Virus record (IMG/VR): IMGVR_UViG_3300042888_001941
Span: 64,001 to 128,000 of that record
Reading direction: 5' to 3' (one strand)
Origin: a virus
DNA length: 64,000 nucleotides
In this document: piece after piece, positions 33,008 through 52,981 of the stretch
How positions within the stretch are numbered: the stretch's first letter is position 1
How the letters are laid out: each line of letters starts with the position of its first letter
Translations under genes and position numbers: made by a program
The notes under the pieces: model-generated
Told to the model about the DNA's origin: nothing
Database searches by the model: none
What the model saw: only the letters and a program-made list of their open reading frames with translations

Positions 33008-34048
33008 ATGAAAGTAGCTGCCTACGCCATCGCGTTGAATGAAGAAAAGCATGCTGCCCGCTGGGCTGAAACCACAAAGGGCGCAGACTTCCGCCTTGTG
33101 TGTGATACTGGATCCACTGATAGAACCGTTGAGATCCTTCGTGAGCATGGCGTAATCGTTCATGAAATATCTGTAAAGCCTTGGCGCTTTGACGTTGCTC
33201 GTAACACCGCACAGAGTTTACTTCCTAATGACGTAGACGTATGCTTGTCACTTGACATGGACGAGCTTGTAGATGAAAACTTTTTTGATGAGGTTCGCAA
33301 GCAGTGGATTCCAGATGCTAACAAAGGCTGGTGCGATTTTGACACAGGTCACGTTTGGTTAGGTTGTCGTTTACACGCGCGTCATGGTATGTATTGGAAG
33401 TATCCAATTCACGAGGTATTCGTTCCGTCGCTTGATACACCGATTAGAAGCATAACAATTACTGGAACTAAGATGTATCACAAGCCGGATGACACAAAAT
33501 CACGCGGACAGTACCTACCTATGCTTGTTGCCGCGTCAAAAGAATTTGGAGAAGATCACCGCATCTGGGTCTATCTTACTCGCGAATACATGTTCTATAA
33601 GATGTGGGACCTAGTTCTATCAAGTGCTGAAAAAGTTCATGCGTTTAGTAAGGACTGGTATGTTGAGAGAGCTGCGGTGTGTCGTTGGGCAAGCGAGGCT
33701 TGCCGTATCCTTGGTCAACCTGAGACTGCAATGGTGTGGGCAGATCGCGCAATTGAGATTGATCCTTGCGGTGAAAATTACTTTGAGAAGGTTCGTTGCT
33801 ACTATGAGCGCGGCGACTGGTCAGGCATTTGGGAAACATCCAAGATAGTTGCTCGCTGCGAAAAAACAAGTCACTATCTTTCAAGTAAAGATCTGTGGGA
33901 ATGGCGACTCTACGATATGCAGGCTCTTGCAGCGCACAATCTGGGAGATAAGCCTAAGGCAATTAAGTACGGAGAACTTGCAATAGAAGGTAATCCAGTA
34001 GATCTACGATTAAGAAACAACCTAGTATTCTACAAACAAGGGATCTAA
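33008..34048 (+). CDS. GT2 glycosyltransferase with TPR-like C-terminus (protein O-glycosyltransferase type)
   Basis: I..NEE, DTGSTDRT, F..ARN, LDMDE (DxD), IHE; helical TPR-like repeats. Confidence 0.85.
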   Translation: MKVAAYAIALNEEKHAARWAETTKGADFRLVCDTGSTDRTVEILREHGVIVHEISVKPWRFDVARNTAQSLLPNDVDVCLSLDMDELVDENFFDEVRKQWIPDANKGWCDFDTGHVWLGCRLHARHGMYWKYPIHEVFVPSLDTPIRSITITGTKMYHKPDDTKSRGQYLPMLVAASKEFGEDHRIWVYLTREYMFYKMWDLVLSSAEKVHAFSKDWYVERAAVCRWASEACRILGQPETAMVWADRAIEIDPCGENYFEKVRCYYERGDWSGIWETSKIVARCEKTSHYLSSKDLWEWRLYDMQALAAHNLGDKPKAIKYGELAIEGNPVDLRLRNNLVFYKQGI

Positions 34049-34911
34049 TGGAGCAGCCAATTGTATTCGTTGCTCTACTTGCAAAACAAAAAGCGCAGGT
34101 ATTAAACTTCTTCCTAGAAACACTTGACGCGTGGGATTACCCTAAGGACAGAATTCATATCTACATCCGCACGAATAACAATACGGATAACACCGAGGAT
34201 ATTCTTGCTGACTGGATTGGTCGCAACGTACAGTCATACCGCAGCGTTGCGTTCGAGACACAGGACGTAGCAGAGCGAGTGCAGGATCTTGAGGTTCATC
34301 AGTGGACAGGTGAAAGATTTAGAGTTCTTGCAAAGATTCGTCAAGAAAGCTTACGCCAATGCTTACTCACAGACGCGGACTATTACTTCGTAGTAGATCT
34401 AGATAACTTCTTATACCCAGACACTCTTAAGGAAATGGTTAAACTTCAACTTCCAATTGTAGCTCCGCTTCTTAGATACGCTATTGCTGGAGGAGATCAT
34501 GCGGATATTCCGACTGAGGCAGCAAAGATAGAAGGACACCAAGGACAGTTCTATGCAAACTATCATCACCTTGTAGATGACTACGGCTCGATTGTAGCAA
34601 ACGACACATACTATAAAATTCTTGACCAAGCAATTAAAGGTCTTATTGAGTGTGACTGCGTGCATTGCACGTACTTAATTAAGCGCGAGTACATTGAACG
34701 CCTTAACTACACCGAGGAATCTGATCGTTGGGAGTACATGGTATTCTCAGAGTCTGCACGCAAGCAGGGTATTCCTCAGTACCTAGATAATCGACGCATC
34801 TGGGGAGTACTTACACTTACAGAGAACGAGAAGGCGTGTCGCTGGTGGATGGATCGCCTTAAGGATCCAGCAACTCAAACTGACCTATATCTTAACCGAG
34901 CGCTAGACTAG
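34048..34911 (+). CDS. GT-A glycosyltransferase resembling the N-terminal domain of procollagen galactosyltransferase (COLGALT/PLOD-like)
   Basis: VFVALLAK...YPKDRI...NTDNTEDIL..W...RQ.SL...ADY..VDLDN..PDTL...IVAPLL...VHCTYLI matches the motif order of COLGALT1 as recalled. Confidence 0.7.
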   Translation: MEQPIVFVALLAKQKAQVLNFFLETLDAWDYPKDRIHIYIRTNNNTDNTEDILADWIGRNVQSYRSVAFETQDVAERVQDLEVHQWTGERFRVLAKIRQESLRQCLLTDADYYFVVDLDNFLYPDTLKEMVKLQLPIVAPLLRYAIAGGDHADIPTEAAKIEGHQGQFYANYHHLVDDYGSIVANDTYYKILDQAIKGLIECDCVHCTYLIKREYIERLNYTEESDRWEYMVFSESARKQGIPQYLDNRRIWGVLTLTENEKACRWWMDRLKDPATQTDLYLNRALD

Positions 34912-36456: not shown

Positions 36457-36738
36457 TTAGCGCTCGTCGGGGTTTGATTCCTCGATTGACATATCCTCGT
36501 CTTCATTATCCCGCTCATATGGCTCTATAGGCACGTATATGCCTACTACGGTAACTTTCCCGCAGGAAATACATTCACATACCGCGCCAGGGACTAGGTT
36601 AAGAGGAACGGTCACGCTTACCAACCGCGTGATGATATTTCCATTTTCATCAACGCTATCTGGTTCCCACGTGCTATTCTCACGAATCCAGCACAACTCG
36701 CACTGAGGTGCTAGGTCTTCGTCGTAGTCTCGTATCAT
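36457..36738 (-). CDS. Hypothetical Zn-finger protein
   Basis: CELC...CISC; acidic tail; coupled to the methyltransferase-like gene. Confidence 0.55.
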   Translation of the reverse strand: MIRDYDEDLAPQCELCWIRENSTWEPDSVDENGNIITRLVSVTVPLNLVPGAVCECISCGKVTVVGIYVPIEPYERDNEDEDMSIEESNPDER

Positions 36739-37997
36739 TACGCGCGTGCTTCCATAGGCTTAGAGTACCACTTCTTCTTTGCGGCGTGTCGAGAAAAGTC
36801 CTTATCACCGTTGATTAAGTACTCACGGTCACCAATCTTTTCAGCATTGCCTTCTTGTGGATTTCCTTCTAGTGAATCCTTAATTGCCTTCGCAATAAAG
36901 TTTCCAGCCTGCACCGCGACTGCCTTGCCCCAGACTGCAGGAAGTGCTGAGTAATCCTTAACGCTTTCAATATCCCAGTCATCGGGAAGTCCCTGCATGC
37001 GTGCAGCCTCGCGGTGAGTAATCAAGCGAGGTTCAGTTGGGTGAACAACGTGATCTAGTGCAGAGCCAGTAAGTACGTTGCACCAGTGATCTTCTTTCCA
37101 GCGATATGGTTGTGAAAACCCAAGCTTAAATTCTTTACGAATAACACGCGGAGAAATATCCATCCACTTTTGCGGGAACTCACCATTGTTCTTTTCAACG
37201 GCCTTCTTTAGCGCACCGCCAGTGTCGCCATTGCCTTCCCAGGCGTCATTTCCAATAATGCTAAAGATCTCTTCAATGCGTTGAGCATGAATATTAGTCT
37301 TGCCGATGTGACCGTTAACCATTCCATTTTTTGAGCGCAGGTGCTTATTCCACTTAGTTGCTGGAGCTGCGTACGGTTGGCTATTCCATGTCAAAGGAAG
37401 TTTAGCAAGATCTCCAATAACGTCCATAATGCGTGGAAGCTCTGTCGGCTCAATATGCGTAACATCAAACTTAATGCCACTGCGAACAGCAATCCAGAAG
37501 TAACGAGGACGATACGAGAATCCACCAACTTGTAAGTTATTGTGTTTCACGTGGTACAGGTCGTACTTCTTGCCAGACAATTCTTCTAGCATATTGCGGT
37601 ACTTAACCATTACCTCACGCCCTTGCGTGTAAGCCTGCTGCACACTCTCGTAAACAACAAACTTAGGCGCAACCTTTGCAGCGTATCTAACAAATGCGCG
37701 TGTATGCTCGTGCGCCTTAGCGTCAGGACCGCGATTAGCTTCACCAGACCACACTGACCAACCGGAGCAGGGAGGGCAACCCATAACAATGTCAGCCTTC
37801 ATTACTGGCCATTCACTCGGGTCATCTGAGAACTGAGATACCCAGTTATTTCCTAGGTGATGACGGTTAGCCTCTGCAACTGGGTTACCAAAATCAAGTG
37901 TTCCAGTGCGCAGTTTCATTTCCATACCTTGTTGAATAAAACCAAGGCTCATGAAACCAGCAAGGCCGTTGCAGTCAATAAATTGTGGGTTAGACAT
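36738..37997 (-). CDS. DNA cytosine-C5 methyltransferase-fold enzyme with atypical cofactor motifs
   Basis: GCPPCSGWS (IV), YESV (VI), YRPRYF (VIII), RLITHREAARMQGLPDDW (IX); motif I reads DCNGLAGF and motif X reads WGKAV. Confidence 0.85.
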   Translation of the reverse strand: MSNPQFIDCNGLAGFMSLGFIQQGMEMKLRTGTLDFGNPVAEANRHHLGNNWVSQFSDDPSEWPVMKADIVMGCPPCSGWSVWSGEANRGPDAKAHEHTRAFVRYAAKVAPKFVVYESVQQAYTQGREVMVKYRNMLEELSGKKYDLYHVKHNNLQVGGFSYRPRYFWIAVRSGIKFDVTHIEPTELPRIMDVIGDLAKLPLTWNSQPYAAPATKWNKHLRSKNGMVNGHIGKTNIHAQRIEEIFSIIGNDAWEGNGDTGGALKKAVEKNNGEFPQKWMDISPRVIRKEFKLGFSQPYRWKEDHWCNVLTGSALDHVVHPTEPRLITHREAARMQGLPDDWDIESVKDYSALPAVWGKAVAVQAGNFIAKAIKDSLEGNPQEGNAEKIGDREYLINGDKDFSRHAAKKKWYSKPMEARA

Positions 37998-38057: not shown

Positions 38058-38351
38058 CTATTCCGCGGTGTTTTCTAGCAAACCTACCTCGTAGCCACAA
38101 CCTGCGTATCCAGCAATATCAACCCAAGTGTCAGGCTGATACCCAGATTTTGACGCGTATCGCGCAACCTTCAACCCAACCATCATCATTGCAACATCTT
38201 CACGAGTGATAGGCACGCTGAGAATTATAGACCAGACCTTTGCTATACGTTCAAAGTTTTCTTCTGGTCCGCCGTACTGCGCATCTCTGTCACCAGTAAT
38301 AATAGATGCCGCGGTGCGTAAAGCCTCTACTCTAGGAAGATTTTCGCTCAT
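38058..38351 (-). CDS. DUF6378-like all-alpha protein, possibly related to nucleotide hydrolases
   Basis: GDR...YG.PEENF.RIA..W...DVA.MM..LK.AR...D.WVD.AGYA. Confidence 0.7.
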   Translation of the reverse strand: MSENLPRVEALRTAASIITGDRDAQYGGPEENFERIAKVWSIILSVPITREDVAMMMVGLKVARYASKSGYQPDTWVDIAGYAGCGYEVGLLENTAE

Positions 38352-38542
38352 TCTTGACCTACCTTTGTGCGAACAGTTACCCTAGCGTTTAGCAAAGCGT
38401 CAAGCTCAGTGATGTTCATTTCTGCTGATATAGGAAGAGTTGCCTCAGTGTCGTTTGCAAGTTTCTTCCACTTAAACTCCGCTTGCTCACGCAGTTCTTG
38501 AAAGTCATTCCCGCTAACTGTAAACTCAACCGTAGCTCTCAT
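38348..38542 (-). CDS. Hypothetical protein
   Basis: 64-aa ORF translationally coupled on both sides. Confidence 0.55.
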   Translation of the reverse strand: MRATVEFTVSGNDFQELREQAEFKWKKLANDTEATLPISAEMNITELDALLNARVTVRTKVGQE

Positions 38543-38961
38543 TAGCGTATTCTTTTCTGCAGAAGATGCGGCGTGTAGTGCGCGCCATCAAGAACTGGCG
38601 TCTTATCGTCCATAGACTTAAAGATAATGTCGCCATAACGAACTCCAACAACTTTTCCGCGGCGTCCGTTATGCATAGCACCAGTAGATCCGTCATACGC
38701 GTCAGCCTTAACGCGGACCTCATCGCCTACCAGTATAGACCCTGGTTGCGCATCAACCCATAACTCGTCAGGCTTCTCAGGCACGATAGAGTGACCAAGA
38801 GCTAGCCTGCTGAACAGATCTATTACATCTTTAGTCTGATTGTCGGAAAGCTTCATGCCTCCCCATTCTTCAAGTAGTTTAAGGATAGCGTTACCTACGC
38901 CAACCTTAACCTTTGCTTCTTCCATTTGGGCTCTAACCCACTCAATGTTTACCTCAGGCAT
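38542..38961 (-). CDS. Hypothetical protein with KOW/SH3-like C-terminus
   Basis: VGDEVRV...NGRRGKVVGV; GGAGGG RBS. Confidence 0.6.
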   Translation of the reverse strand: MPEVNIEWVRAQMEEAKVKVGVGNAILKLLEEWGGMKLSDNQTKDVIDLFSRLALGHSIVPEKPDELWVDAQPGSILVGDEVRVKADAYDGSTGAMHNGRRGKVVGVRYGDIIFKSMDDKTPVLDGAHYTPHLLQKRIR

Positions 38962-38962
38962 G

Positions 38963-39448
38963 TTAGTTGTCCCCTCCTATTTCGTCTGGTAAGCACTTTA
39001 CACATATACCAAGATTTCTGCTGCGCCCAACGTCATCAATTGCGCGCTTGCATAGTTCACATTTTACGCCTTCATCTTTAACTTTGTACCCATTAAGCTG
39101 GCGTTCCTTATTGCGTTCCATTTTTTCAATATAGAACTTATCCAGCATTTCGTCTGTTCCACCCGCCGCAACGATGATATTTGCAACAAAGTGAAGAACA
39201 TCCACAGCTTCCTTAACAATTTCCTCGCGGTCCGCGTAAGGAGCATCGTGCTGCCAAGGCTTCCATGAGATAGCCTGGCGCATCTCTGCAAGTTCATCGT
39301 CAATGGCTAGCATGTTCCAGCGCATGTACTCAATCAACTTGCGAATATTCTGTGGCTTATCGCCTGTCATCTCTTCGTAGTTAATGAAGTATACGTTTTC
39401 CTGTAGATCACGTGTGCGACGCAACCAGTTATTAAACAACATTCCCAT
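38963..39448 (-). CDS. All-alpha dCTP/dUTP pyrophosphatase (T4 gp56-like)
   Basis: DELAE...WKPW...KEAVDVLHF..N...FY..K..RN..RQ.NGY follows the gp56/dimeric dUTPase pattern. Confidence 0.78.
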   Translation of the reverse strand: MGMLFNNWLRRTRDLQENVYFINYEEMTGDKPQNIRKLIEYMRWNMLAIDDELAEMRQAISWKPWQHDAPYADREEIVKEAVDVLHFVANIIVAAGGTDEMLDKFYIEKMERNKERQLNGYKVKDEGVKCELCKRAIDDVGRSRNLGICVKCLPDEIGGDN

Positions 39449-39450
39449 CG

Positions 39451-40470
39451 TTATACCTTTCCACTGTATAGCTTTAATGATTCAGTCAATGTAATTGCTG
39501 CATCTCGTTTGGTTGGGATTGCGTTTAAGTACGCGCTCCTTTGATCTTTTGCTAGTTGCATTCTTTCTTCTTGCGACATATGCTCAATTGCAGATGCAAG
39601 CTGCATCCATGAACTTCCAATGAAGCCACTTTCACGCCAGTCAGTAGCAACTGGAGTTAGAGCATTGAGACACTGAACTATGCGGTATGTCCACCATGTT
39701 CCGTTCTGGTGAGGGCTAATCAAAGCTCCTGTGCCACGAGCAATTTGATCTGCTACCTTATCGTCTGCCCAACCTTTATTCCACTTCATAGGAACTGTAG
39801 GATTGGCAAGCATGGCAATGGTTGATTTAGTCCATGGAGAAGAAAAGTTTTCTACTACCCATTTATCAGTTCGTTCAGAGTCAGAAGGTTCTGGCTCTGT
39901 GATTAAGTACCTATCAAGGTTAATTCCTTTAAGACTATTTCGCGCTGGTTCATGCAGTTGCTCTTGAATGTTTTCCTGCGCGGTCCACGGTAGCGTTGGG
40001 TACAACGTAGTAGCCCACTCGTTCGTAAGAAGCGCGTCTACAGTCTCTAGGAGACTCTTTAAGACATCAGGAGCGTTAGCTTGCGTATAACCTTTGCGAT
40101 ATGAGTAAAAAGGCTTCACAAGGTTGTCTGGGTTCTTTTTAATGGCGCGTAGACTAGACACGATGCGCGTAGGCTCTGGCGCGTCAATATAGAAAGATAG
40201 ACGACTGTCACCGCGAAGTAAACCTATAACCTTAAGAGCTCCATAGGTTCTATTTGCACTAAGACTAGTGATAGGGCTTAATCCAACAAGAATTTTGTTA
40301 AAACTCTTTAGGTCATCAAGCGTCCAGGACATTTCAGGATCTGATTGAGTGACCTCGTGCCCTTGTTGAGTAAGCACGTGTACTAGCAAACTTGCAAACG
40401 ATAACGTGCGTTTGTTTGCGTCTGCTGATACGTGTGGAGCAGACATGCCAGTTATAAGAATTTTGCTCAT
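39451..40470 (-). CDS. GT-B glycosyltransferase, DNA beta-glucosyltransferase-like (paralogue 2)
   Basis: KILITG...L...GHEV...DLKSFNKILVGLSP..SL...FYID; C-terminal ALISP....WW..R; paralogous to 40467..41678. Confidence 0.6.
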   Translation of the reverse strand: MSKILITGMSAPHVSADANKRTLSFASLLVHVLTQQGHEVTQSDPEMSWTLDDLKSFNKILVGLSPITSLSANRTYGALKVIGLLRGDSRLSFYIDAPEPTRIVSSLRAIKKNPDNLVKPFYSYRKGYTQANAPDVLKSLLETVDALLTNEWATTLYPTLPWTAQENIQEQLHEPARNSLKGINLDRYLITEPEPSDSERTDKWVVENFSSPWTKSTIAMLANPTVPMKWNKGWADDKVADQIARGTGALISPHQNGTWWTYRIVQCLNALTPVATDWRESGFIGSSWMQLASAIEHMSQEERMQLAKDQRSAYLNAIPTKRDAAITLTESLKLYSGKV

Positions 40471-41678
40471 GCACGAGTCCCATCTGCGTTTAACGCAATA
40501 CCTTTGTCCTCACGAACGGCACGCTCAATGATGCGATTACAGTGCTCAACAAACGCTGAGTACTCAGGGATGTAAGGCTTAAGTGCTTCCTGTTGCGCAA
40601 TTGCCGCCGCAGCTAATTCAGCATCACTCATCTTCTCAACATCAGCAATTGTAAGCTTATAGGCGTCACCTAATGGATCACCTTCGCCCTTATCAGTAAC
40701 AAGAATAGACCCCACGTGCGCTGCGTATAGGAAACGACTACGCCACCAGCCAGAACCAGCGTGTGGGTAAGGTGGTGAAAGAATACCCCAGTGATTATTG
40801 TAGAACTCAAGTACGTCCTGCTCTGTGTCAAAGCGTTGGCCGCCAAGCTTCTTAATAAGTTTACGACTGCCTACAATTTCAACGGGCCACTCTAATGATT
40901 TACGTTCTAGCCAATTATCGTGCGGCATGAGAGCGCCAAGTACCCATGCACGCTTTTTATCAGCCGCAGGTTTTGCAATCACGGGCTGTAACGTAGGAAT
41001 GATAGTTGCTGTTGGGTCAAGAGCTTCAATAGGACCTAATTCATCAGGCATACGCTTGCGAACAATTGACCTATCACCAAATCCATACATAGGGCATACT
41101 GGAACCATGCCAGCTTCCCATCGCTTATCTACAAGATCAGTTGCTGCTTGAACAAGACGCTTTTCCCATGGTTTAATGTTTTCATCGTTGTCCATCATGT
41201 AATAACGTTCGATGTAGCACTTTTTCGCCGCCGCAGGGTTAACCTCACGGATTCTTTCAAGTGCAGCTTCAATGTCTGCGCGACTAAAGTAAGTTGCGCC
41301 TTCTTCACCGCGATGTTCAGTTCCTACAAGCAGATGCTTATACAACATCGCAGGTTTACGAATTAGCGCACGTGCTCCGTTGAATACAGTATTAAACTGC
41401 CAATCATCAAAGAAACCAACACAAGGAATGCCAGATGACAAAGCGTAGAGTGCACCCATCGCACCTTGGCGACCATTTAATGAGTTAAGGGGTGCAAGAT
41501 TGATCCACAGTACGTCATAAGATGACAGGTCTTCGCCAGGTGTAATCTTGCGCCAGTCAACATCGTGACCAGACTCACGCAATGCCCGAGCAATAGACGC
41601 AGGTACGTCAATCTTTTGAATAGTTCTTTTTTCTGTGTTTATCTGCAAAGCAGTAAACCCACTCATTAGAACTTTCAT
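40467..41678 (-). CDS. GT-B glycosyltransferase, DNA beta-glucosyltransferase-like (paralogue 1)
   Basis: DLSSYDVLWINLAPLNSLNG and GFFDDWQF resemble T4 BGT DVNDYDRLIVVNSSINFFGG and YLFTDIRL (recalled); ILSPPY...GWWRSR. Confidence 0.62.
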   Translation of the reverse strand: MKVLMSGFTALQINTEKRTIQKIDVPASIARALRESGHDVDWRKITPGEDLSSYDVLWINLAPLNSLNGRQGAMGALYALSSGIPCVGFFDDWQFNTVFNGARALIRKPAMLYKHLLVGTEHRGEEGATYFSRADIEAALERIREVNPAAAKKCYIERYYMMDNDENIKPWEKRLVQAATDLVDKRWEAGMVPVCPMYGFGDRSIVRKRMPDELGPIEALDPTATIIPTLQPVIAKPAADKKRAWVLGALMPHDNWLERKSLEWPVEIVGSRKLIKKLGGQRFDTEQDVLEFYNNHWGILSPPYPHAGSGWWRSRFLYAAHVGSILVTDKGEGDPLGDAYKLTIADVEKMSDAELAAAAIAQQEALKPYIPEYSAFVEHCNRIIERAVREDKGIALNADGTRA

Positions 41679-46407: not shown

Positions 46408-48230
46408 CGGTATTTTTCGCCCCAGTTCTCCATAGGTCCGTCGATTCCAGATGTAAGTGGGACTTCCCAGCCTTCTCTAGTAGTCATGCATTCTTGCACA
46501 ACCTTCATAATCTCTTGCGCGTCCTTACGCGGAGCATTCAACACAATTTCGTCGTGTACAGGAACGATAAGAAGTTCGGTTAAATCTGCCTGGTCGAGTT
46601 TAATCAAATTAGACTTAAAGACTTCAGCCGCGCCTCCTTGAATTAAGTAATTCACAAGCGTGTAAGCTCTATCTTCATCGCAAGGAAGCCTACGGCCTGT
46701 CCATGTGTAGACGTATCCTTGTCCTTCTTGCCTAAAACGTCTAACGCCTGCGTCTTCAATTTGCTTTTGGAAGAACGCCATTCCAGGGAATCTCATATCA
46801 AACGCATCTGATACCGTGCGCATCTGAGGCTCAGCAACGCCTGCAGTTAACGCTTGCTTTGCAACGCCTGCGCCATAGAGTCGTCCGTAGACAGTTCCTT
46901 TAATAAGATTACGGCGCTTATCTGAGCGCTGCATCGTTGGGTCATTGTAGATCTCGCGTCCAATCTCGGTAAACGGATCTGAGCCTGTAGCATCTGCGCG
47001 ATTAAACAACGTGATGAGATTCTGGTCACCAGACAGAGATGCGAACATACGGAACTCAACCTGGTCAAGGTCCGAGGTAATAATGACGTGGTCTTCATCC
47101 TTAGGTATAAACGCTGTGCGAACAGTGTCATCACCCTTAGGCAGTGTCTGCAGCGCTGGGTTTTGTATAGACATACGTGACGTACGAGCGCCAAGAGTCT
47201 TGACAGATGGGTGAACAAACCCATTCACATTGTCGTTAATAAAGTTAGCAAAGTAGGTATTGGCAAGTTTATCTGCCTTACGCTGCTTAAGAACAACCTC
47301 GGCTAGAGCCTTTACCTCATCATTTCCTGTAATTGAAAGTAACTTAAGTTGATCCTTAGATGCAGACTTCTGTCCTGAAGGTGTAAATTCAAAGATCTCT
47401 CCGCCAAGAGATTCAAACAACCGCACCAATTGAATGTTACTTGAGATTGATACGCCGTTATACTTTTCCTTTGCCCAGCCTTTAACAGACTCAGCATAGG
47501 CGGTTAGCTCATCAAACTTACGCTTAGAGTAATCTAGGTCAATACGAGCGCCATTGATTTCCATACGAGTAACAATGCGGCGTGCTGCCATTTCCAATTC
47601 ATACGCCTTGTTGTACGGTCCTCCTGGGCCACACTTTTCCCAGAACATTTCCCACAGACGCATTGTAAGAACGCAGTCGAGTGCGCCGTACGCCCAGTAC
47701 GGTTGGAAGTTAGTAGGAACAGTTCCCCACGTCCAGCCATTTTCAATAAGTGAAATATCAAGTGATTCCTGCAATGCAACTGCACGACCATCAACGTGTA
47801 ATGCAGCAAGACGTTTTAGCGCCCCAGACCCAAGCGGATCAATGATGTGCGCCATAATCATAGTGTCATGCGCACGGTGCCAAGGCAGTTTCCAATCTGA
47901 CTGAATATCAAACCAGCGAGCTTCAAACGCAATGTTGTGGCAGACTATAGGTCCATCAAAGCGCTCCATTGCCTCATAGAACACGCCTTTCCACTGGTCC
48001 CATGGAATCGACCAACCTTGCTCTGCATCGCCCACCTGGACCAAACGTAGGCGTCCATGCCATGGTGATAGCGCATGGTCACGTGGGTTACCAGGCAACT
48101 CACCAGTTTCAGTGTCGATTGCGATAGCGTTATGTGGACGGCGTTGGCCAATCCACTCAAGAAACGCTTGAGCTTTTTCAACGCTGTCAACAAGGTGAAG
48201 TTGAACGTCCTGCATGCCTTTAGTTGTCAT
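46404..48230 (-). CDS. polA: Family A DNA polymerase (3'-5' exonuclease plus polymerase)
   Basis: IDTET, HN..FE, YGALD; motif A DLDQVEFR, motif B RRNLIKGTVYGRLYG, motif C VHDE. Confidence 0.93.
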   Translation of the reverse strand: MTTKGMQDVQLHLVDSVEKAQAFLEWIGQRRPHNAIAIDTETGELPGNPRDHALSPWHGRLRLVQVGDAEQGWSIPWDQWKGVFYEAMERFDGPIVCHNIAFEARWFDIQSDWKLPWHRAHDTMIMAHIIDPLGSGALKRLAALHVDGRAVALQESLDISLIENGWTWGTVPTNFQPYWAYGALDCVLTMRLWEMFWEKCGPGGPYNKAYELEMAARRIVTRMEINGARIDLDYSKRKFDELTAYAESVKGWAKEKYNGVSISSNIQLVRLFESLGGEIFEFTPSGQKSASKDQLKLLSITGNDEVKALAEVVLKQRKADKLANTYFANFINDNVNGFVHPSVKTLGARTSRMSIQNPALQTLPKGDDTVRTAFIPKDEDHVIITSDLDQVEFRMFASLSGDQNLITLFNRADATGSDPFTEIGREIYNDPTMQRSDKRRNLIKGTVYGRLYGAGVAKQALTAGVAEPQMRTVSDAFDMRFPGMAFFQKQIEDAGVRRFRQEGQGYVYTWTGRRLPCDEDRAYTLVNYLIQGGAAEVFKSNLIKLDQADLTELLIVPVHDEIVLNAPRKDAQEIMKVVQECMTTREGWEVPLTSGIDGPMENWGEKYR

Positions 48231-48699
48231 TCAAGTCCTTAAATATCGTTACATCAATTTCACATTTGGCGAAATACTCAACTGTGGCCTCTGGGTTTCT
48301 ATGAGCTGCAATCGTGCTAACACGCATAACAACTTTAGATACTCCAGAGTTAGAAATCAGCTTTGCGCATTGAATGCACGCTGCGTCGGTAATATACACT
48401 GTCCCGCCCTCAACTCGTGAGCGATCTACGTAGAGAAGCGCATTTGCCTCTGCATGAATAGATGGGCAAGAATCGTAAACGTTATCCAGAGGAGTTTCAC
48501 CGCGAGCACGAGCGCACCAGTTCATGCACTCGCCTTCCGCAGGAAACGTAGCAGCAGGACCGTTGTATCCCGTTGAGCTAATACGTTGATCCTTTGAGAC
48601 TACAACCGCACCTATTTGAGCGCGGCTACAACGAGATCTAAGAGCTACTGTATCTGCGACAGTCATCCACACCTCGTCCCATGATGGACGATTACTCAT
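48220..48699 (-). CDS. dCMP deaminase
   Basis: RS.C.R..IGA, GYNG, HAE.NA, C-x2-C (ACIQC). Confidence 0.88.
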   Translation of the reverse strand: MSNRPSWDEVWMTVADTVALRSRCSRAQIGAVVVSKDQRISSTGYNGPAATFPAEGECMNWCARARGETPLDNVYDSCPSIHAEANALLYVDRSRVEGGTVYITDAACIQCAKLISNSGVSKVVMRVSTIAAHRNPEATVEYFAKCEIDVTIFKDLNDN

Positions 48700-48874
48700 T
48701 CATACCTCGAAACAGCGAGTGCTTCATTGCCTCGGAGACAAGAAACATAGCTTCCCTACGAGAAAATCCAGCAGTCTTTAACTCTTCATACATAACGTGA
48801 AGAGTAATGGAAGCCTCACGTAAAGGAGAAAGATAGAGTTCTTCTGCCTTTTCATGTTCTTCCTTACTTGCCAT
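48692..48874 (-). CDS. Hypothetical protein
   Basis: ATG at 48874 after GAGGAG; LH.MYEEL..AGFSR.EA. Confidence 0.6.
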   Translation of the reverse strand: MASKEEHEKAEELYLSPLREASITLHVMYEELKTAGFSRREAMFLVSEAMKHSLFRGMNE

Positions 48875-49736
48875 TTTCTTTCTCCTCGTTCTTTTCAATA
48901 GCACGAATCATTGCGTTTGCGTACCACTGCTCAAACGGATGTAGATTAAAGAGTAGAGTCTTTTCCTGCTTGTGAATAGCAGCTGTAAGAGCTCCTTCAG
49001 CACGTCGTTGTACCTGTTCCCAGCTAAGTCCAGTAATAGGTGGAATGTCCTCATACGGCTCAGTTGTATGCTTTAGGTTTTCAGCCGCGTCGTAATGCTG
49101 TTCATAGATATGAAGAGATCCAACGTGATGAGCGTACGTGCCTGCTTGAATTCCTAGAACAGATGCCATAGCAATCTGAACACGCGTAAACTGGAAGAAG
49201 TCGTATGCAGCTCCTAGCCATACATCGTTTGAGCGCATGTAAACACTCATGTTAAGTTTATTGTCACGGATACGGAACTGATGCAAGATTGTACACGGGT
49301 AATCGCGCTTACTTGGCAAAAGATCAAGTACTGGATCCCAGATGGTAACAACCGCTTGTCGTGTATCTGGGTCTGCTTTTAATCGCTCAATAACAGGACC
49401 GTACTGGTCAATAGTACGTGAACCGTACGCACCATGGAATAGTCCATTGTCCTCTGCGTAGTTCTTAAACATTGGACCTACTGCCATAACAAGCTTAGGC
49501 GTTGTTGCGCCTGCAAGTAGCTGACATGCTTCAACCGCACCAATACCAGGAACAGTTCCGCGGTTAACACCTAGTGGTAGTGTGTCATGCACATTCTCAA
49601 TGCGAATTATTGCGTCCTCAATCTCACGGGTCTTCATACCGCGAGGAGCAGCCTCTTTACCGTGCTTAAGAACGTGCTGAACAAGGTCAACATAGCCGTT
49701 AACTCCGTCAGGAATGTTAATTATTGCAGTATCCAT
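48864..49736 (-). CDS. Thymidylate-synthase homologue, predicted dCMP-specific (hydroxymethylase/methylase/hydroxylase)
   Basis: PRG..TRE, DTRQAV, DYPCT, MRSNDVWLGAAYD (Asp at the position of ThyA Asn177), GSLHIY. Confidence 0.8.
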   Translation of the reverse strand: MDTAIINIPDGVNGYVDLVQHVLKHGKEAAPRGMKTREIEDAIIRIENVHDTLPLGVNRGTVPGIGAVEACQLLAGATTPKLVMAVGPMFKNYAEDNGLFHGAYGSRTIDQYGPVIERLKADPDTRQAVVTIWDPVLDLLPSKRDYPCTILHQFRIRDNKLNMSVYMRSNDVWLGAAYDFFQFTRVQIAMASVLGIQAGTYAHHVGSLHIYEQHYDAAENLKHTTEPYEDIPPITGLSWEQVQRRAEGALTAAIHKQEKTLLFNLHPFEQWYANAMIRAIEKNEEKENGK

Positions 49737-50743
49737 GGATCATCCTCTTTCAGTTTGTTATCGGCGCTTTGTTGTATTGCTTGTCCATACTCTAGACTGT
49801 TCTTGTAATTAAATCGTCGTACGTGTTGCGGGTGCGGCAGTACATCATACTCGCTTGCAGGAATTCCAGCCGCCATGATTCCTTTTTCGGCGTTTCGTCC
49901 TAAGGCAACAACACGTGGTGACCCAAGGTCTTCCCAGAGATCATACAGATCATCAATGTCAATATCTGCTACGTTAACAATTCCACACTTGGGCCATAGC
50001 TCTGTAGGAAGAGCGCTGAGTAGAAAATCACCGGAGTTATTATCAACAGGCATGAATGGAAGCTTAGTTTCCTCGCCGTACTCCTCAAGGATATTGCGCT
50101 TATCTCCAACAAGCAAAACCTTAGGTGTAGGGCTTCCAATATACGTAGGATACTTTGTAAGAATAGGTTGAACTAGCCCAGACATTGCCTCAGCAACGTC
50201 AACAATATGTTTGGCAAGCTCTGGAACACTATCAAGGCTGTCGGCTGGAGGAGTAAGACGCTCGGTTAAACTTACTGACACGGCTGACGCAATAGAGTAG
50301 TTCTCAAGGATTTCCTTAAGGTCACTTACCTTTACGAACTCGTCACCGCGAGATTCTAGACGACGCTGAATAACATCAAGAGGTTGATACAACCAAAAGG
50401 AGGCAACTCCACGAGACATGAGAAAGAGTTCAACCCAACGCCAACCAGCTTTACCTAGTAGACCAAAGCCGTCGGTGTTTGTGAGAGGACGGTACTTAGG
50501 AGCGTACGTTATTTCGCCCCAGTGCCAGCGGTCTGACAGACCATTGCAATCTTGTGAAAAGTTAATGTGCTCTACACTATTAACGTAATCCTTAAGGACC
50601 CAACGGCGTGTCTCTTCAAGCGGACGACCTTTGTGAAACTGCATGAAGTGCTTATCGGGGTGACGCCGTTTGATTTCATTGGCAACTGCCTCAATAAGCG
50701 AGGTTTTACCAGATGCGTCGGTTCCTTCTATAACTATAAACAT
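49721..50743 (-). CDS. dNMP kinase fused to a uracil-DNA-glycosylase-superfamily domain
   Basis: IEGTDASGKTS, DRWH..E..Y, RL..RGD; C-terminal VLLVGD...LPF...SG.FL...RVVALGRNA...LPHP. Confidence 0.75.
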   Translation of the reverse strand: MFIVIEGTDASGKTSLIEAVANEIKRRHPDKHFMQFHKGRPLEETRRWVLKDYVNSVEHINFSQDCNGLSDRWHWGEITYAPKYRPLTNTDGFGLLGKAGWRWVELFLMSRGVASFWLYQPLDVIQRRLESRGDEFVKVSDLKEILENYSIASAVSVSLTERLTPPADSLDSVPELAKHIVDVAEAMSGLVQPILTKYPTYIGSPTPKVLLVGDKRNILEEYGEETKLPFMPVDNNSGDFLLSALPTELWPKCGIVNVADIDIDDLYDLWEDLGSPRVVALGRNAEKGIMAAGIPASEYDVLPHPQHVRRFNYKNSLEYGQAIQQSADNKLKEDDPWILQ

Positions 50744-51803: not shown

Positions 51804-52394
51804 TTATGCTACTGTATTAAATGCACTATTCCAGTTTTCTTCTGTCATCTCGTTTCTAATCACTGACAGGTACGACGGGCCTTTAGTAAAGTACCAGTGC
51901 TCAGGCTCGGCAAAATGAAAAAATATCATTGCAACGTGATTTTCTTTAGGATTGGGAAAGTCTTCTCTCCAGTGCATTTGGTCGTTTCCATAGTAGGCAA
52001 GAGCCTGATTTGGATGAAGAGTATACGCTTTATTTTCTACCCATAGGTCCCACGGGTTCTTTTGATAGACGCACATGTCGATAGTGTAGGTACACGCGTT
52101 ATCGTCCTTGTGCTTGTACAGACTTGCGCTTTCCCCCTCGTAGTGAGAAAAAAGAGTGTAAGTAGGCATGAGGTTTTCACTACCAAAAGTGGATCTAGCT
52201 AAAGGAATAAGCTTTGTAGTGTACTCCTTTAGTTCTTCCATCGTGTTGTCTGCAACAACATATCTAGAAAATCCTTGCTGATACTCAAAAGATTTATAGT
52301 CTGAGAACAGTGACTTTAGACTGTTAAAGTCGTCTTGATTAAAGACGTCATTTAAGACAGCAGGTTCTTTTACAAAAGTCACTATTCCCACCAA
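51804..52394 (-). CDS. 2OG-Fe(II) oxygenase
   Basis: L.KHKD (HxD)...HWRE...IFFHF. Confidence 0.75.
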   Translation of the reverse strand: MVGIVTFVKEPAVLNDVFNQDDFNSLKSLFSDYKSFEYQQGFSRYVVADNTMEELKEYTTKLIPLARSTFGSENLMPTYTLFSHYEGESASLYKHKDDNACTYTIDMCVYQKNPWDLWVENKAYTLHPNQALAYYGNDQMHWREDFPNPKENHVAMIFFHFAEPEHWYFTKGPSYLSVIRNEMTEENWNSAFNTVA

Positions 52395-52981
52395 CCAACA
52401 ATTGCGTACCTTGTCCCGCTAACAACTGGATGAACTGTATGAGTATACACGTAGTTAGAAGGGAACATAATCATTTGATCCGCAACTGGTTTTATCTTTA
52501 GATTAAAGTTAACAAATTCTATTTCGCCACCTTCGTAATCTTCATTTAGATAGTAGCTCATGGATAAAGTTCTAGGGTACTGTTTCGAGTCATCATAGTG
52601 CTTTACGAAGTGATTATCTTTTCCATACTTTAAAAGTTGCCAACCTTCGTTTATCGTCCAGTGATGCGCCGAGTACAGAGACCTGTAGTCATCTACAGTT
52701 GGCAGTAGTTTTTCATCTATTTTTGCAGAAAGTTCTGTAAACACGCTCGGATTATTTTTGAACTCTGGGTGCTTATCGTACGATGGCAATGATATTGCAA
52801 AGCAGTCTCTGGCGCTTTTATTCACCATGCTGTCACCGTCAGCGCCGTCCGACTGTGAGGCTTGATACCAGCTAAGTTTCTTTTCAGCTACAAGATTTTC
52901 AATGTACGCAATTAGCCCTAAGGAGTCTCCCGTCACATTCGTATAAGAAATTATTCCTGGAGCTAGTTCTTCTCTACTCAT
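52382..52981 (-). CDS. 2OG-Fe(II) oxygenase, prolyl-4-hydroxylase-like
   Basis: LLKY...HYD...YLNEDYEGGE..F...FPSN...H.V.PV.SG.RY. Confidence 0.85.
   Translation of the reverse strand: MSREELAPGIISYTNVTGDSLGLIAYIENLVAEKKLSWYQASQSDGADGDSMVNKSARDCFAISLPSYDKHPEFKNNPSVFTELSAKIDEKLLPTVDDYRSLYSAHHWTINEGWQLLKYGKDNHFVKHYDDSKQYPRTLSMSYYLNEDYEGGEIEFVNFNLKIKPVADQMIMFPSNYVYTHTVHPVVSGTRYAIVGWWE

Follow-up and report, generated by a model that had tools for sequence, protein, structure and literature searches.

The 64,000-nucleotide window analysed here (positions 64,001 to 128,000 of IMG/VR record IMGVR_UViG_3300042888_001941, a complete virus record of 136,434 bp) carries a gene for a protein of 419 amino acids that is predicted to have the fold of a C5-cytosine methyltransferase (C5-MTase). 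The residues that attack and activate cytosine are retained, and the pocket that would hold S-adenosylmethionine (SAM) is rebuilt, with a lysine (Lys358) at the site of the canonical motif X asparagine. Such proteins, referred to below as the Lys type, co-occur near-obligately with a gene of the kind predicted to encode 5-hydroxymethyl-deoxycytidine monophosphate (5hm-dCMP) synthase, and thus with the making of hydroxymethylcytosine (hmC). The function favoured here, tentatively and at somewhat less than an even chance, is covalent, non-methyl tailoring of hmC in DNA. A wider proposal treats the Lys-type clade as a class of DNA-modifying enzymes of its own. That such a new class would substitute hmC independently of SAM through an exocyclic-methylene intermediate and would carry out a cytosine hypermodification so far undescribed, is possible but less probable.

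The assignment to the fold comes from profile matches and a structure model. The open reading frame (ORF) lies exactly where the preliminary description of this DNA had placed it, and every motif string quoted there was found. The protein matches PF00145 with an E value of 1e-23 (84.8 bits against a cut-off of 22), in an alignment that covers profile positions 36-323 only; the motif I region is left unaligned because the match begins at profile position 36. Against the NCBIfam dcm model TIGR00675 it scores 40.3 bits, below the cut-off of 100.65. An AlphaFold 2 (AF2) model built from a 94-sequence alignment has a mean predicted local distance difference test score (pLDDT) of 95.9 and a predicted template modelling score (pTM) of 0.94. 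It supersedes an earlier model from a 10-sequence alignment, in which the mean pLDDT was 61.9 and the target-recognition domain (TRD) and motifs IX-X fell below 50. Foldseek relates the newer model to DNMT1, MET1, ZMET2, 3G7U, M.HaeIII, and M.HhaI with a probability of 1.00; for 3G7U, the template modelling (TM) score is 0.63 to the query and 0.75 to the target. The enzyme is thus modelled as a two-domain C5-cytosine-methyltransferase fold.

How far is the catalytic machinery conserved? When 1.84 billion cluster representatives, which are mutually at most 50% identical, were searched with the family profile, 2,550 matched at E<=1e-3. Of these, 167 reached E<=1e-30, so that the clade comprises 167 or more clusters at 50% identity; 150 matches were listed. 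The window enzyme keeps P75-P-C77 (motif IV), E117-S-V119, R163-P-R165, and R324-L-I-T-H-R-E...P-D-D-W341. Among the 111 near-full-length representatives in the matches listed, Cys77 is present in 110, Glu117 in 110, Arg163 in 109, and Arg165 in all 111. The claim that the cytosine-activating residues are intact therefore holds for the family as well as for the window, with 98-100% conservation.

The changes are concentrated in the cofactor pocket. When the family profile is aligned to M.HaeIII, N10 takes the place of the motif I Phe, L12 that of the first motif I Gly, and G32 that of the motif II Glu. The motif II region reads M27-K-L-R-T-G-T-L34, where strand beta-2 spans residues 26-32 in the 94-sequence model, and T31/G32 would occupy the site of the ribose-binding acid. 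In the motif X string, G357-K-A-V360, K358 stands opposite the Asn of M.HaeIII (GNAV) and of 3G7U (GNSV) in phmmer comparisons with solved structures, as the preliminary description had expected; in an hhalign alignment that starts only at motif IV, it falls on Arg350 of SpCmoX, a phage carboxymethyltransferase considered below. Canonical C5-MTases have PCQ in motif IV and ENV in motif VI; the replacements found here, PCS and ESV, are both large-to-small and would make room at C5.

These features recur throughout the family. An alignment of sequences down to 35% identity shows no variation, in 10/10, at G357, K358, PPCS, E117, V119, R163, R165, or the residues of motif IX. In the wider census, 145 of the 150 listed representatives have a residue in the K358 column: 140 have K, two R, and one each S, Q, and M, while none has N. 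G-K is found in 96%, PPC-S in 89%, and E-S-V in 95% of the 111 near-full-length sequences. Among the listed representatives, the motif I consensus is D-[CV]-[QHN]-G-[FL]-A-G-[GA], with Q/H/N/E/Y at position 10 and F/L/Y at position 12. To judge from these alignments, the pocket changes are conserved and do not represent decay, since Lys is present in 140 of 145 listed representatives and Asn in none. The earlier observation that motifs I and X are altered is thereby extended to the family, and the concern raised alongside it, that the substitutions might be unconserved decay, is removed. The reported loss of the motif II acid stands for the window subclade, to which R-T-G is confined; most of the wider family keeps the Glu (V-K-R-E-x-P), together with an A-G-G loop.

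Could the protein still be an ordinary SAM-dependent 5-methylcytosine (5mC) methyltransferase with odd motifs, acting on residual phage cytosine or on host DNA? The PF00145 fold with its full set of cytosine-activating residues would suit such a role, as would the database annotation of its homologues as methyltransferases, the motif II Glu of the wider family, and the engineered M.MedI-N377K, in which a motif X Lys is compatible with full SAM-dependent methylation (PMC12015181). However, the absence of Asn from all 145 listed representatives points to selection for a basic residue, beyond mere tolerance of one; other residues stand in for the Phe and first Gly of motif I throughout the family, and the TIGR00675 score is far below its cut-off. 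A stand-alone protective methylase would also have no need of the 5hm-dCMP synthase that accompanies the Lys type (see below). Finally, a genome scan revealed no close cellular relative and no restriction-modification context, although it used peptide patterns of the window subclade only and is weak for distant relatives; the three matches inspected all read G-N-A-V at motif X. An ordinary methylase is therefore considered unlikely.

The second line of evidence is genetic context. The window encodes a thymidylate synthase (TS) homologue that scores under every thymidylate-synthase equivalog cut-off, and whose best solved match is MilA, a CMP 5-hydroxymethylase (E 5e-23). In published diagnostics for TS homologues (E. 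coli ThyA numbering), N177D denotes a dCMP substrate, an acidic residue at L143 a hydroxymethyl product, and D169N the 5-hydroxy-dCMP synthases (PMC13326640). The window protein has D at the equivalents of 143, 169, and 177 (D145, D171, and D179), and L143D, the Cys, D169, and N177D are found in 46/46 TS homologues (45 extracted sequences and that of the window). A 5-hydroxy-dCMP synthase can be ruled out, given that D169 is kept in all 46. The residue pattern is that of a predicted 5hm-dCMP synthase, in agreement with the earlier view that the gene belongs to a block replacing cytosine with a 5-substituted cytosine.

The TS homologue is present in 35/39 Lys-type records, which comprise the window's own genome, 23 relatives (18 of 80 viral loci, on contigs of at least 30 kb, plus five named phages), and 15 independent records of the wider family; these records include many related phages and do not count as independent events. 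The four misses are fragments that are 9-28% complete. The gene was found in 5/5 named phages carrying the Lys enzyme, in 16/18 long related contigs (misses 23% and 28% complete), and in 13/15 wider-family records (misses 9% and 21% complete), including 6/6 that are at least 90% complete; the enzyme is of the Lys type at all 15 of these wider-family loci. By contrast, the TS homologue is absent from the control records, 0/2 of the Asn type and 0/11 of the Arg type; the latter are phage S-B43 and 10 of 80 CmoX loci (contigs of at least 22 kb) and represent one close lineage (86-97% identity). The link spans different replication modules, with PolA in the window and in locus L115 and Prim-Pol in L175. 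The Lys enzyme thus co-occurs near-obligately with a gene of the 5hm-dCMP-synthase type, which answers the question of co-occurrence with Asp-type TS homologues that the preliminary description had raised.

TET-coupled oxidation of 5mC was considered and ruled out, as the complete own genome has no match to the TET/JBP dioxygenase family PF12851 at E<=1. The window does encode a 199-amino-acid 2-oxoglutarate (2OG)-Fe(II) oxygenase (52382-52981, minus strand; PF13640, E 1.9e-17), which lies outside the TET/JBP family. Some phage C5-MTases are linked to TET; for clades III-VI of these, differences are described in motifs IX and X, and no methylation was seen in E. coli with clades III and IV (PMC8256090). 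Clades III-VI might be of the Arg or Lys type, and might overlap with the family described here. Neither a natural Lys-type clade nor its link to hmC is described in the literature searched, supplements and subscription journals excluded, and partners resembling C5-MTases are not discussed in the MetaGPA paper (PMC8670742).

What reaction would a C5-MTase fold carry out in an hmC genome? In the proposed pathway, the TS homologue would make 5hm-dCMP, which would then be phosphorylated; a MazG-like enzyme would remove dCTP, and the phage PolA would replicate hmC-containing DNA. Since phage cytosines would be replaced before replication, the substrate available to the Lys-type enzyme would be hmC. 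The enzyme would flip the (hydroxymethyl)cytosine from the duplex and Cys77 would attack C6, with Glu117 and Arg163/Arg165 holding the base as in a methylase. Without a methyl group being taken from SAM, the resulting C5 carbanion or enamine would labilise the 5-CH2-OH group to give an exocyclic-methylene intermediate, as in thymidylate-synthase chemistry. A nucleophile held in the rebuilt pocket that once took SAM would trap this intermediate, unless it is resolved along some other non-methyl route, and Lys358 may lie beside the exocyclic carbon as an acid or an anion-binding group. C5-MTases are known from earlier work to couple thiols to hmC. Moreover, M.MpeI forms Cys-dependent covalent complexes with hmC DNA, from which the hydroxymethyl group is released as formaldehyde (PMC11347137). 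SAM-independent tailoring of hmC was one of two alternatives put forward in the preliminary description; it fits the evidence and is preferred here.

The other alternative was natural carboxymethylation. The CmoX enzyme of Synechococcus phage S-B43 (SpCmoX), described in December 2025, makes 5-carboxymethylcytosine from carboxy-SAM that a phage CmoA supplies. Its Arg350 replaces Asn304 of HhaI and contacts the carboxymethyl group, the adenosine is contacted by Phe25, Glu47, Phe48, and Asp69, and the CmoY ligase then adds glycine (PMC12783734). Natural carboxymethylation of phage DNA is already published for the Arg type, with counts of 4,257 CmoA for 5,615 CmoX; the Lys-type proteins lie outside this published family because membership required SPPC and R350 (PMC12783734). 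The Asn-to-Lys change is known from engineered enzymes: M.MpeI N374K uses carboxy-SAM (PMC12783734, PMC12015181), and the Lys of M.MpeI N374K or M.MedI N377K forms a salt bridge to the carboxylate of carboxy-SAM, but both enzymes still use SAM, with 28% to >99% methylation (PMC12015181). The precedent invoked in the preliminary description for the motif X lysine is thus correct for M.MpeI, but Lys alone leaves SAM use possible, as M.MedI-N377K illustrates. The second variant cited there, 'Dcm N436K', was not found in the literature searched.

A carboxymethyltransferase like CmoX, or another user of an anionic SAM analogue, would alkylate plain cytosine with a cofactor that the host, or some phage enzyme not recognised as such, would have to supply. 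The position of K358 on Arg350 is consistent with this, since Lys has the same charge and may serve a similar function; the engineered Asn-to-Lys enzymes, the interchange of K and R within the family (R in two of the 145 listed, and an R-type fusion in L115 and L127), the motif II Glu of most of the wider family, and the class I SAM-fold domains that are fused or adjacent in some members point the same way. The cofactor supply does not. No CmoA had been seen in the window, and none is present in the complete genome either (TIGR00740, E<=1). Across all Lys-type records CmoA is found in 0/39, compared with 9/11 Arg-type records, where the two misses are 18-19% complete; the positive control, S-B43, was detected with an E value of 2.5e-34 (115.6 bits). 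The host is also a poor candidate as a source: from the bacterial class that includes Actinomyces, Gordonia, and Micrococcus, 201 genomes were sampled; none scored above the CmoA cut-off, and only three have a CmoA-like gene on a par with the proven phage CmoA (at least 94 bits). Nor was a ligase like SpCmoY found at E<=1e-3 in the own genome, 18 class I contigs, and the five named-phage loci, using tblastn, a sequence search of low reach.

The pocket also differs from that of SpCmoX. SpCmoX combines a canonical motif I (F-A-G-G-G-G) and motif II (N-E-F) with Arg, whereas the window enzyme has N-G-L-A-G-F and R-T-G with Lys; the equivalents of the adenosine contacts Phe25 and Glu47 are N10 and T31/G32, so that both contact residues are missing from the window subclade. 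The catalytic motif is SPPC in SpCmoX, C-P-P-C in the window enzyme, and mostly N-P-P-C in the wider Lys family. Profile comparison gives the family no special affinity to SpCmoX (8YF3, E 3.7e-8, as against E 3.6e-16 for M.HaeIII), and the basic residue has therefore probably arisen by convergence. In addition, an hmC genome would leave little unmodified cytosine to alkylate. Taken together, the missing CmoA and the changed adenosine contacts count against the carboxymethyltransferase proposed in the preliminary description, which now appears improbable.

Table 1. Features of the window (positions count from the first nucleotide of the 64,000; all lie on the minus strand).
Feature	Coordinates	Strand	Basis and occurrence
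93-aa Cys-rich ORF (CxxC...CxCxxC)	36457..36738	-	in 31/63 related loci; no family match
Lys-type C5-cytosine-MTase-fold enzyme (predicted), 419 aa, ATG start	36738..37997	-	ORF, PF00145, structure model
Lys358 codon, motif X site of canonical Asn / SpCmoX Arg350	36924..36926	-	alignments
Catalytic Cys77 codon (PPC, motif IV)	37767..37769	-	alignment; family conservation
R30-T31-G32, end of strand beta-2, site of motif II acid	37902..37910	-	profile alignment and model
Rebuilt motif I, D8-C-N-G-L-A-G-F15	37953..37976	-	profile alignment to M.HaeIII; family census
DUF6378 protein	38058..38351	-	PF19905 E 4.9e-30; in 64/69 related loci
Conserved 139-aa protein	38542..38961	-	no family match; in 60/64 related loci
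MazG-like / dimeric-dUTPase-type nucleoside triphosphate (NTP) pyrophosphohydrolase, candidate dCTPase	38963..39448	-	PF08761 E 4.3e-11; phrog_18650
339-aa putative DNA glycosyltransferase	39451..40470	-	paralogy; atlas lead; in 53/54 loci
403-aa putative DNA glycosyltransferase (beta-glucosyltransferase (BGT)-like lead)	40467..41678	-	atlas lead; homologue annotations
dCMP deaminase	48220..48699	-	PF00383 E 1.6e-18
TS homologue, 5-hydroxymethyl-dCMP synthase signature D145, C148, D171, D179	48864..49736	-	MilA match and published diagnostics
340-aa deoxynucleoside monophosphate (dNMP)-kinase-like protein	49721..50743	-	phrog_761 E 2.8e-13; TIGR00041 E 4.8e-5, below cut-off

The genes around the Lys-type enzyme are listed in Table 1; the counts of related loci take only those loci with enough flank for each gene. 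The ATG of the Cys-rich ORF overlaps the TAA stop of the enzyme (TAATG), which suggests that the two are translationally coupled. The DUF6378 protein is also found at the distant wider-family loci L175, L176, and L180, and its PHROG label of 'phosphofructokinase' looks doubtful. The MazG-like gene is present in 58/59 related loci, and at wider-family loci it lies directly upstream of the enzyme in 7/15 and within 7 kb in three more.

Two putative transferases complete the block. They are weak paralogues of each other (E 2e-5 and 5e-5) and have neither a Pfam match nor a meaningful sequence match in the PDB (phmmer). Atlas leads connect the 403-aa protein to a neighbouring cluster that is 100% T4-Gluco-transf (score 0.96), and the 339-aa protein to a neighbouring cluster in which 12% are Glyco_trans_1_2. 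The homologue of the 403-aa protein is annotated as a glycosyltransferase in Actinomycetia phage DSL-LC01; the match in phage Sixama is annotated as hypothetical and stands beside an annotated glycosyltransferase. In L175, a small complete genome that carries the enzyme, no glycosyltransferase was recognised by Pfam in 10 ORFs (13.4 kb of 36 kb). The expected co-occurrence with BGT-like genes is thus seen as leads beside the enzyme, which no Pfam or PDB match backs.

Several observations on glycosylation and methylation genes can be added. In DSL-LC01, a gene annotated as a 170-aa 'class I SAM-dependent methyltransferase' (L001:13422-13934), without an NCBIfam match, is located directly upstream of the Lys-type gene, and an annotated UDP-galactopyranose mutase (L001:9938-11035) is found among the transferase genes, a hint of galactofuranose modification. 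In the window itself, two adjacent GT2-like glycosyltransferases, the first with tetratricopeptide (TPR) repeats, end a block of Gly-rich fibre genes (33008-34911, plus strand); this pair probably has no tie to DNA modification.

Might the enzyme make hmC instead of altering it? A post-replicative cytosine hydroxymethylase would act as a 'gap filler', converting cytosines that had escaped replacement to hmC. The one-carbon unit would come from formaldehyde or from a carrier of methylene groups, and the reaction may pass through an iminium at Lys358. C5-MTases add formaldehyde to cytosine in the absence of SAM. The recurrent partners of the family all act on a hydroxyl group, and with the gaps filled the transferases could decorate every site; furthermore, the enzyme adjoins the MazG-like gene that would remove dCTP. 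Such an activity would, however, duplicate a pre-replicative pathway that is always present. An autonomous hydroxymethylase could also occur without the TS homologue, yet no record that is at least 90% complete holds the enzyme alone (the own genome, 2/2 long related contigs, and the 6/6 of the wider family have both). No feature for binding a one-carbon carrier was identified in the enzyme. A gap-filling role is accordingly regarded as quite improbable.

Domain fusions offer a further view of the family. Of 20 long members that were scanned, eight have a C-terminal class I methyltransferase domain (seven of the Lys type and one with Met). The fused domains are FkbM- or UbiG-like, and TIGR00740 matched 0/7 of the proteins scanned (E<=0.01); on this ground, the class I domains, whether fused or adjacent, are ruled out as CmoA equivalents. 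One of the 20, P0248, is fused to the helical domain of a 5-hydroxymethyldeoxyuridine (5-hmdU) DNA kinase (PF18723, E 5e-40). Since a Walker A motif is absent, the fusion partner is not the kinase itself, and no relatives of P0248 were found in a scan of viral contigs. The remaining fusions are one intein and one winged-helix domain; in the family member P0215 (752 aa), an intein with Hint, LAGLIDADG, and splicing domains sits just before motif IV. The recurrent partners, that is, the BGT-like transferases and the fused O-methyltransferase domains, are of predicted types that act on hydroxyl groups.

Two observations concern class I domains near hmC-type genes. A stand-alone homologue of the class I domain of P0213 adjoins kinase-like and TS-like (D/D/D) genes in L113, L116-L125, and L128, a context that suggests an O-methylation step in some hydroxymethylpyrimidine pathways. 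In L115 (9968-11887) and L127, a fusion of a C5-MTase to a class I methyltransferase has Arg (A-R-G-V) at the Lys position and retains the motif II Glu; the genes immediately before it encode a TS-like protein and a dCMP deaminase, which places an Arg type in an hmC-type context.

The phage genome need not be the target. An anti-host enzyme specific for cytosine could act on host DNA only, by deamination, trapping, or marking, and so contribute to shut-off or DNA breakdown. The enzyme co-occurs near-obligately with cytosine replacement, which would make the phage immune to it, the gene lies among early replication and nucleotide-metabolism genes, and SAM-free C5-MTases are reported to deaminate cytosine (PMC3804486). 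This explanation leaves both the fusions to O-methyltransferase and hydroxymethylpyrimidine-kinase helical domains and the need for a basic motif X residue unaccounted for, and the case for it is purely inferential; it is very unlikely.

Several points weigh against tailoring of hmC as well. That the enzyme acts on hmC and not on C, how it would substitute the base, with which co-substrate and to which product, and what Lys358 does are all inferred, and the position of Lys358 relative to C5 comes from the SpCmoX alignment and the published structure description. In the wider family, the motif II Glu and A-G-G loop may allow an adenosyl-type cofactor to survive, and M.MedI-N377K, which methylates >99% with SAM, demonstrates that a motif X Lys permits the use of SAM (PMC12015181). 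The hydroxyl group on which the enzyme is proposed to act would also be claimed by the transferases encoded next to it, no gene that might supply a nucleophile was identified, and the kinase-related fusion in P0248 carries the helical domain only, without Walker A. The co-occurrence counts include many related phages and are set against an Arg-type control group from a single lineage. It shows dependence on an hmC background, without showing that hmC is the substrate, and an enzyme acting on host DNA with normal cytosine, or on residual cytosine, would give the same co-occurrence.

Where is the Lys-type enzyme found? The clade is known so far from phages. Gene content (WhiB, PolA, an SNF2 helicase, and tail genes) marks the source of the window as an actinobacterial phage. 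The closest named relative of the enzyme is that of DSL-LC01 (64% identity), and homologues with 35-40% identity are present in Gordonia phages Sixama, Forza, GMA2, Phendrix, and GodonK and in Micrococcus phage Kurnik. The region was listed in 24 public sequencing runs, all in the form of assembled contigs; apart from the possible source, half or more of the sampled words occur in seven runs from seven studies, and lake-water metagenomes thus contain the source phage widely.

Few enzymes that act on DNA are understood as well as the C5-cytosine methyltransferases, and T-even phages provide the textbook example of an hmC pathway. A conserved clade in which the attack on cytosine is kept and the donor pocket replaced, and which occurs almost only in phages that make hmC, implies a missing step of hypermodification. 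If the proposed function is correct, there would be a new natural cytosine derivative, or a new route to one, and its carriers would include abundant lake actinophages as well as cultured Gordonia and Micrococcus phages. This would affect the recognition of these phages by restriction, type IV, and CRISPR defences, and could provide a natural enzyme that derivatises hmC directly, for use in sequencing and labelling chemistry. The comparison also sets apart two probably convergent ways of rebuilding one pocket position, as Arg with CmoA and carboxy-SAM and as Lys with a 5hm-dCMP synthase. The question is directly testable, since the gene is present in the six cultured phages of Gordonia and Micrococcus named above.

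How does the Lys-type enzyme compare with known systems? It shares with the canonical C5-MTases the fold, motifs IV, VI, VIII, and IX, and a large target-recognition domain, and differs from them in the motif I Phe and first Gly, the motif X Asn, and the PCQ and ENV motifs, all of which are replaced in the Lys family. With SpCmoX it has in common that it is phage-encoded, adopts the C5-MTase fold with a catalytic PPC Cys, and carries a basic residue at the position of HhaI Asn304; both are predicted to serve a hypermodification 'handle' instead of a methyl mark. Their genetic partners are different: CmoX travels with CmoA and amide ligases and never with the TS homologue in the 11 records, the reverse of the Lys type. 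The engineered M.MpeI N374K and M.MedI N377K have the same Asn-to-Lys change with motifs I and II otherwise intact, whereas the natural Lys family has further changes in motif I, at the Gln of motif IV, and at the Asn of motif VI, and lacks a source of carboxy-SAM.

The closest chemical parallel to the proposed reaction lies in the cofactor-free reactions of C5-MTases on hmC, which involve the same covalent engagement and the same loss or exchange of the hydroxymethyl group. In enzymes such as M.MpeI these are slow side reactions of a methylase, while here they would be an evolved main activity with a rebuilt pocket. The closest genetic parallel is phage T4, where gp42 is a dCMP hydroxymethylase, gp1 a kinase, and gp56 a dCTPase, and alpha- and beta-glucosyltransferases decorate the resulting hmC. 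The window has candidate counterparts of these genes in its TS homologue, dNMP-kinase-like protein, NTP pyrophosphohydrolase, and two putative BGT-like proteins. The T4 pathway contains no enzyme of the C5-MTase fold, and the Lys-type enzyme is the extra component in the pathway predicted here.

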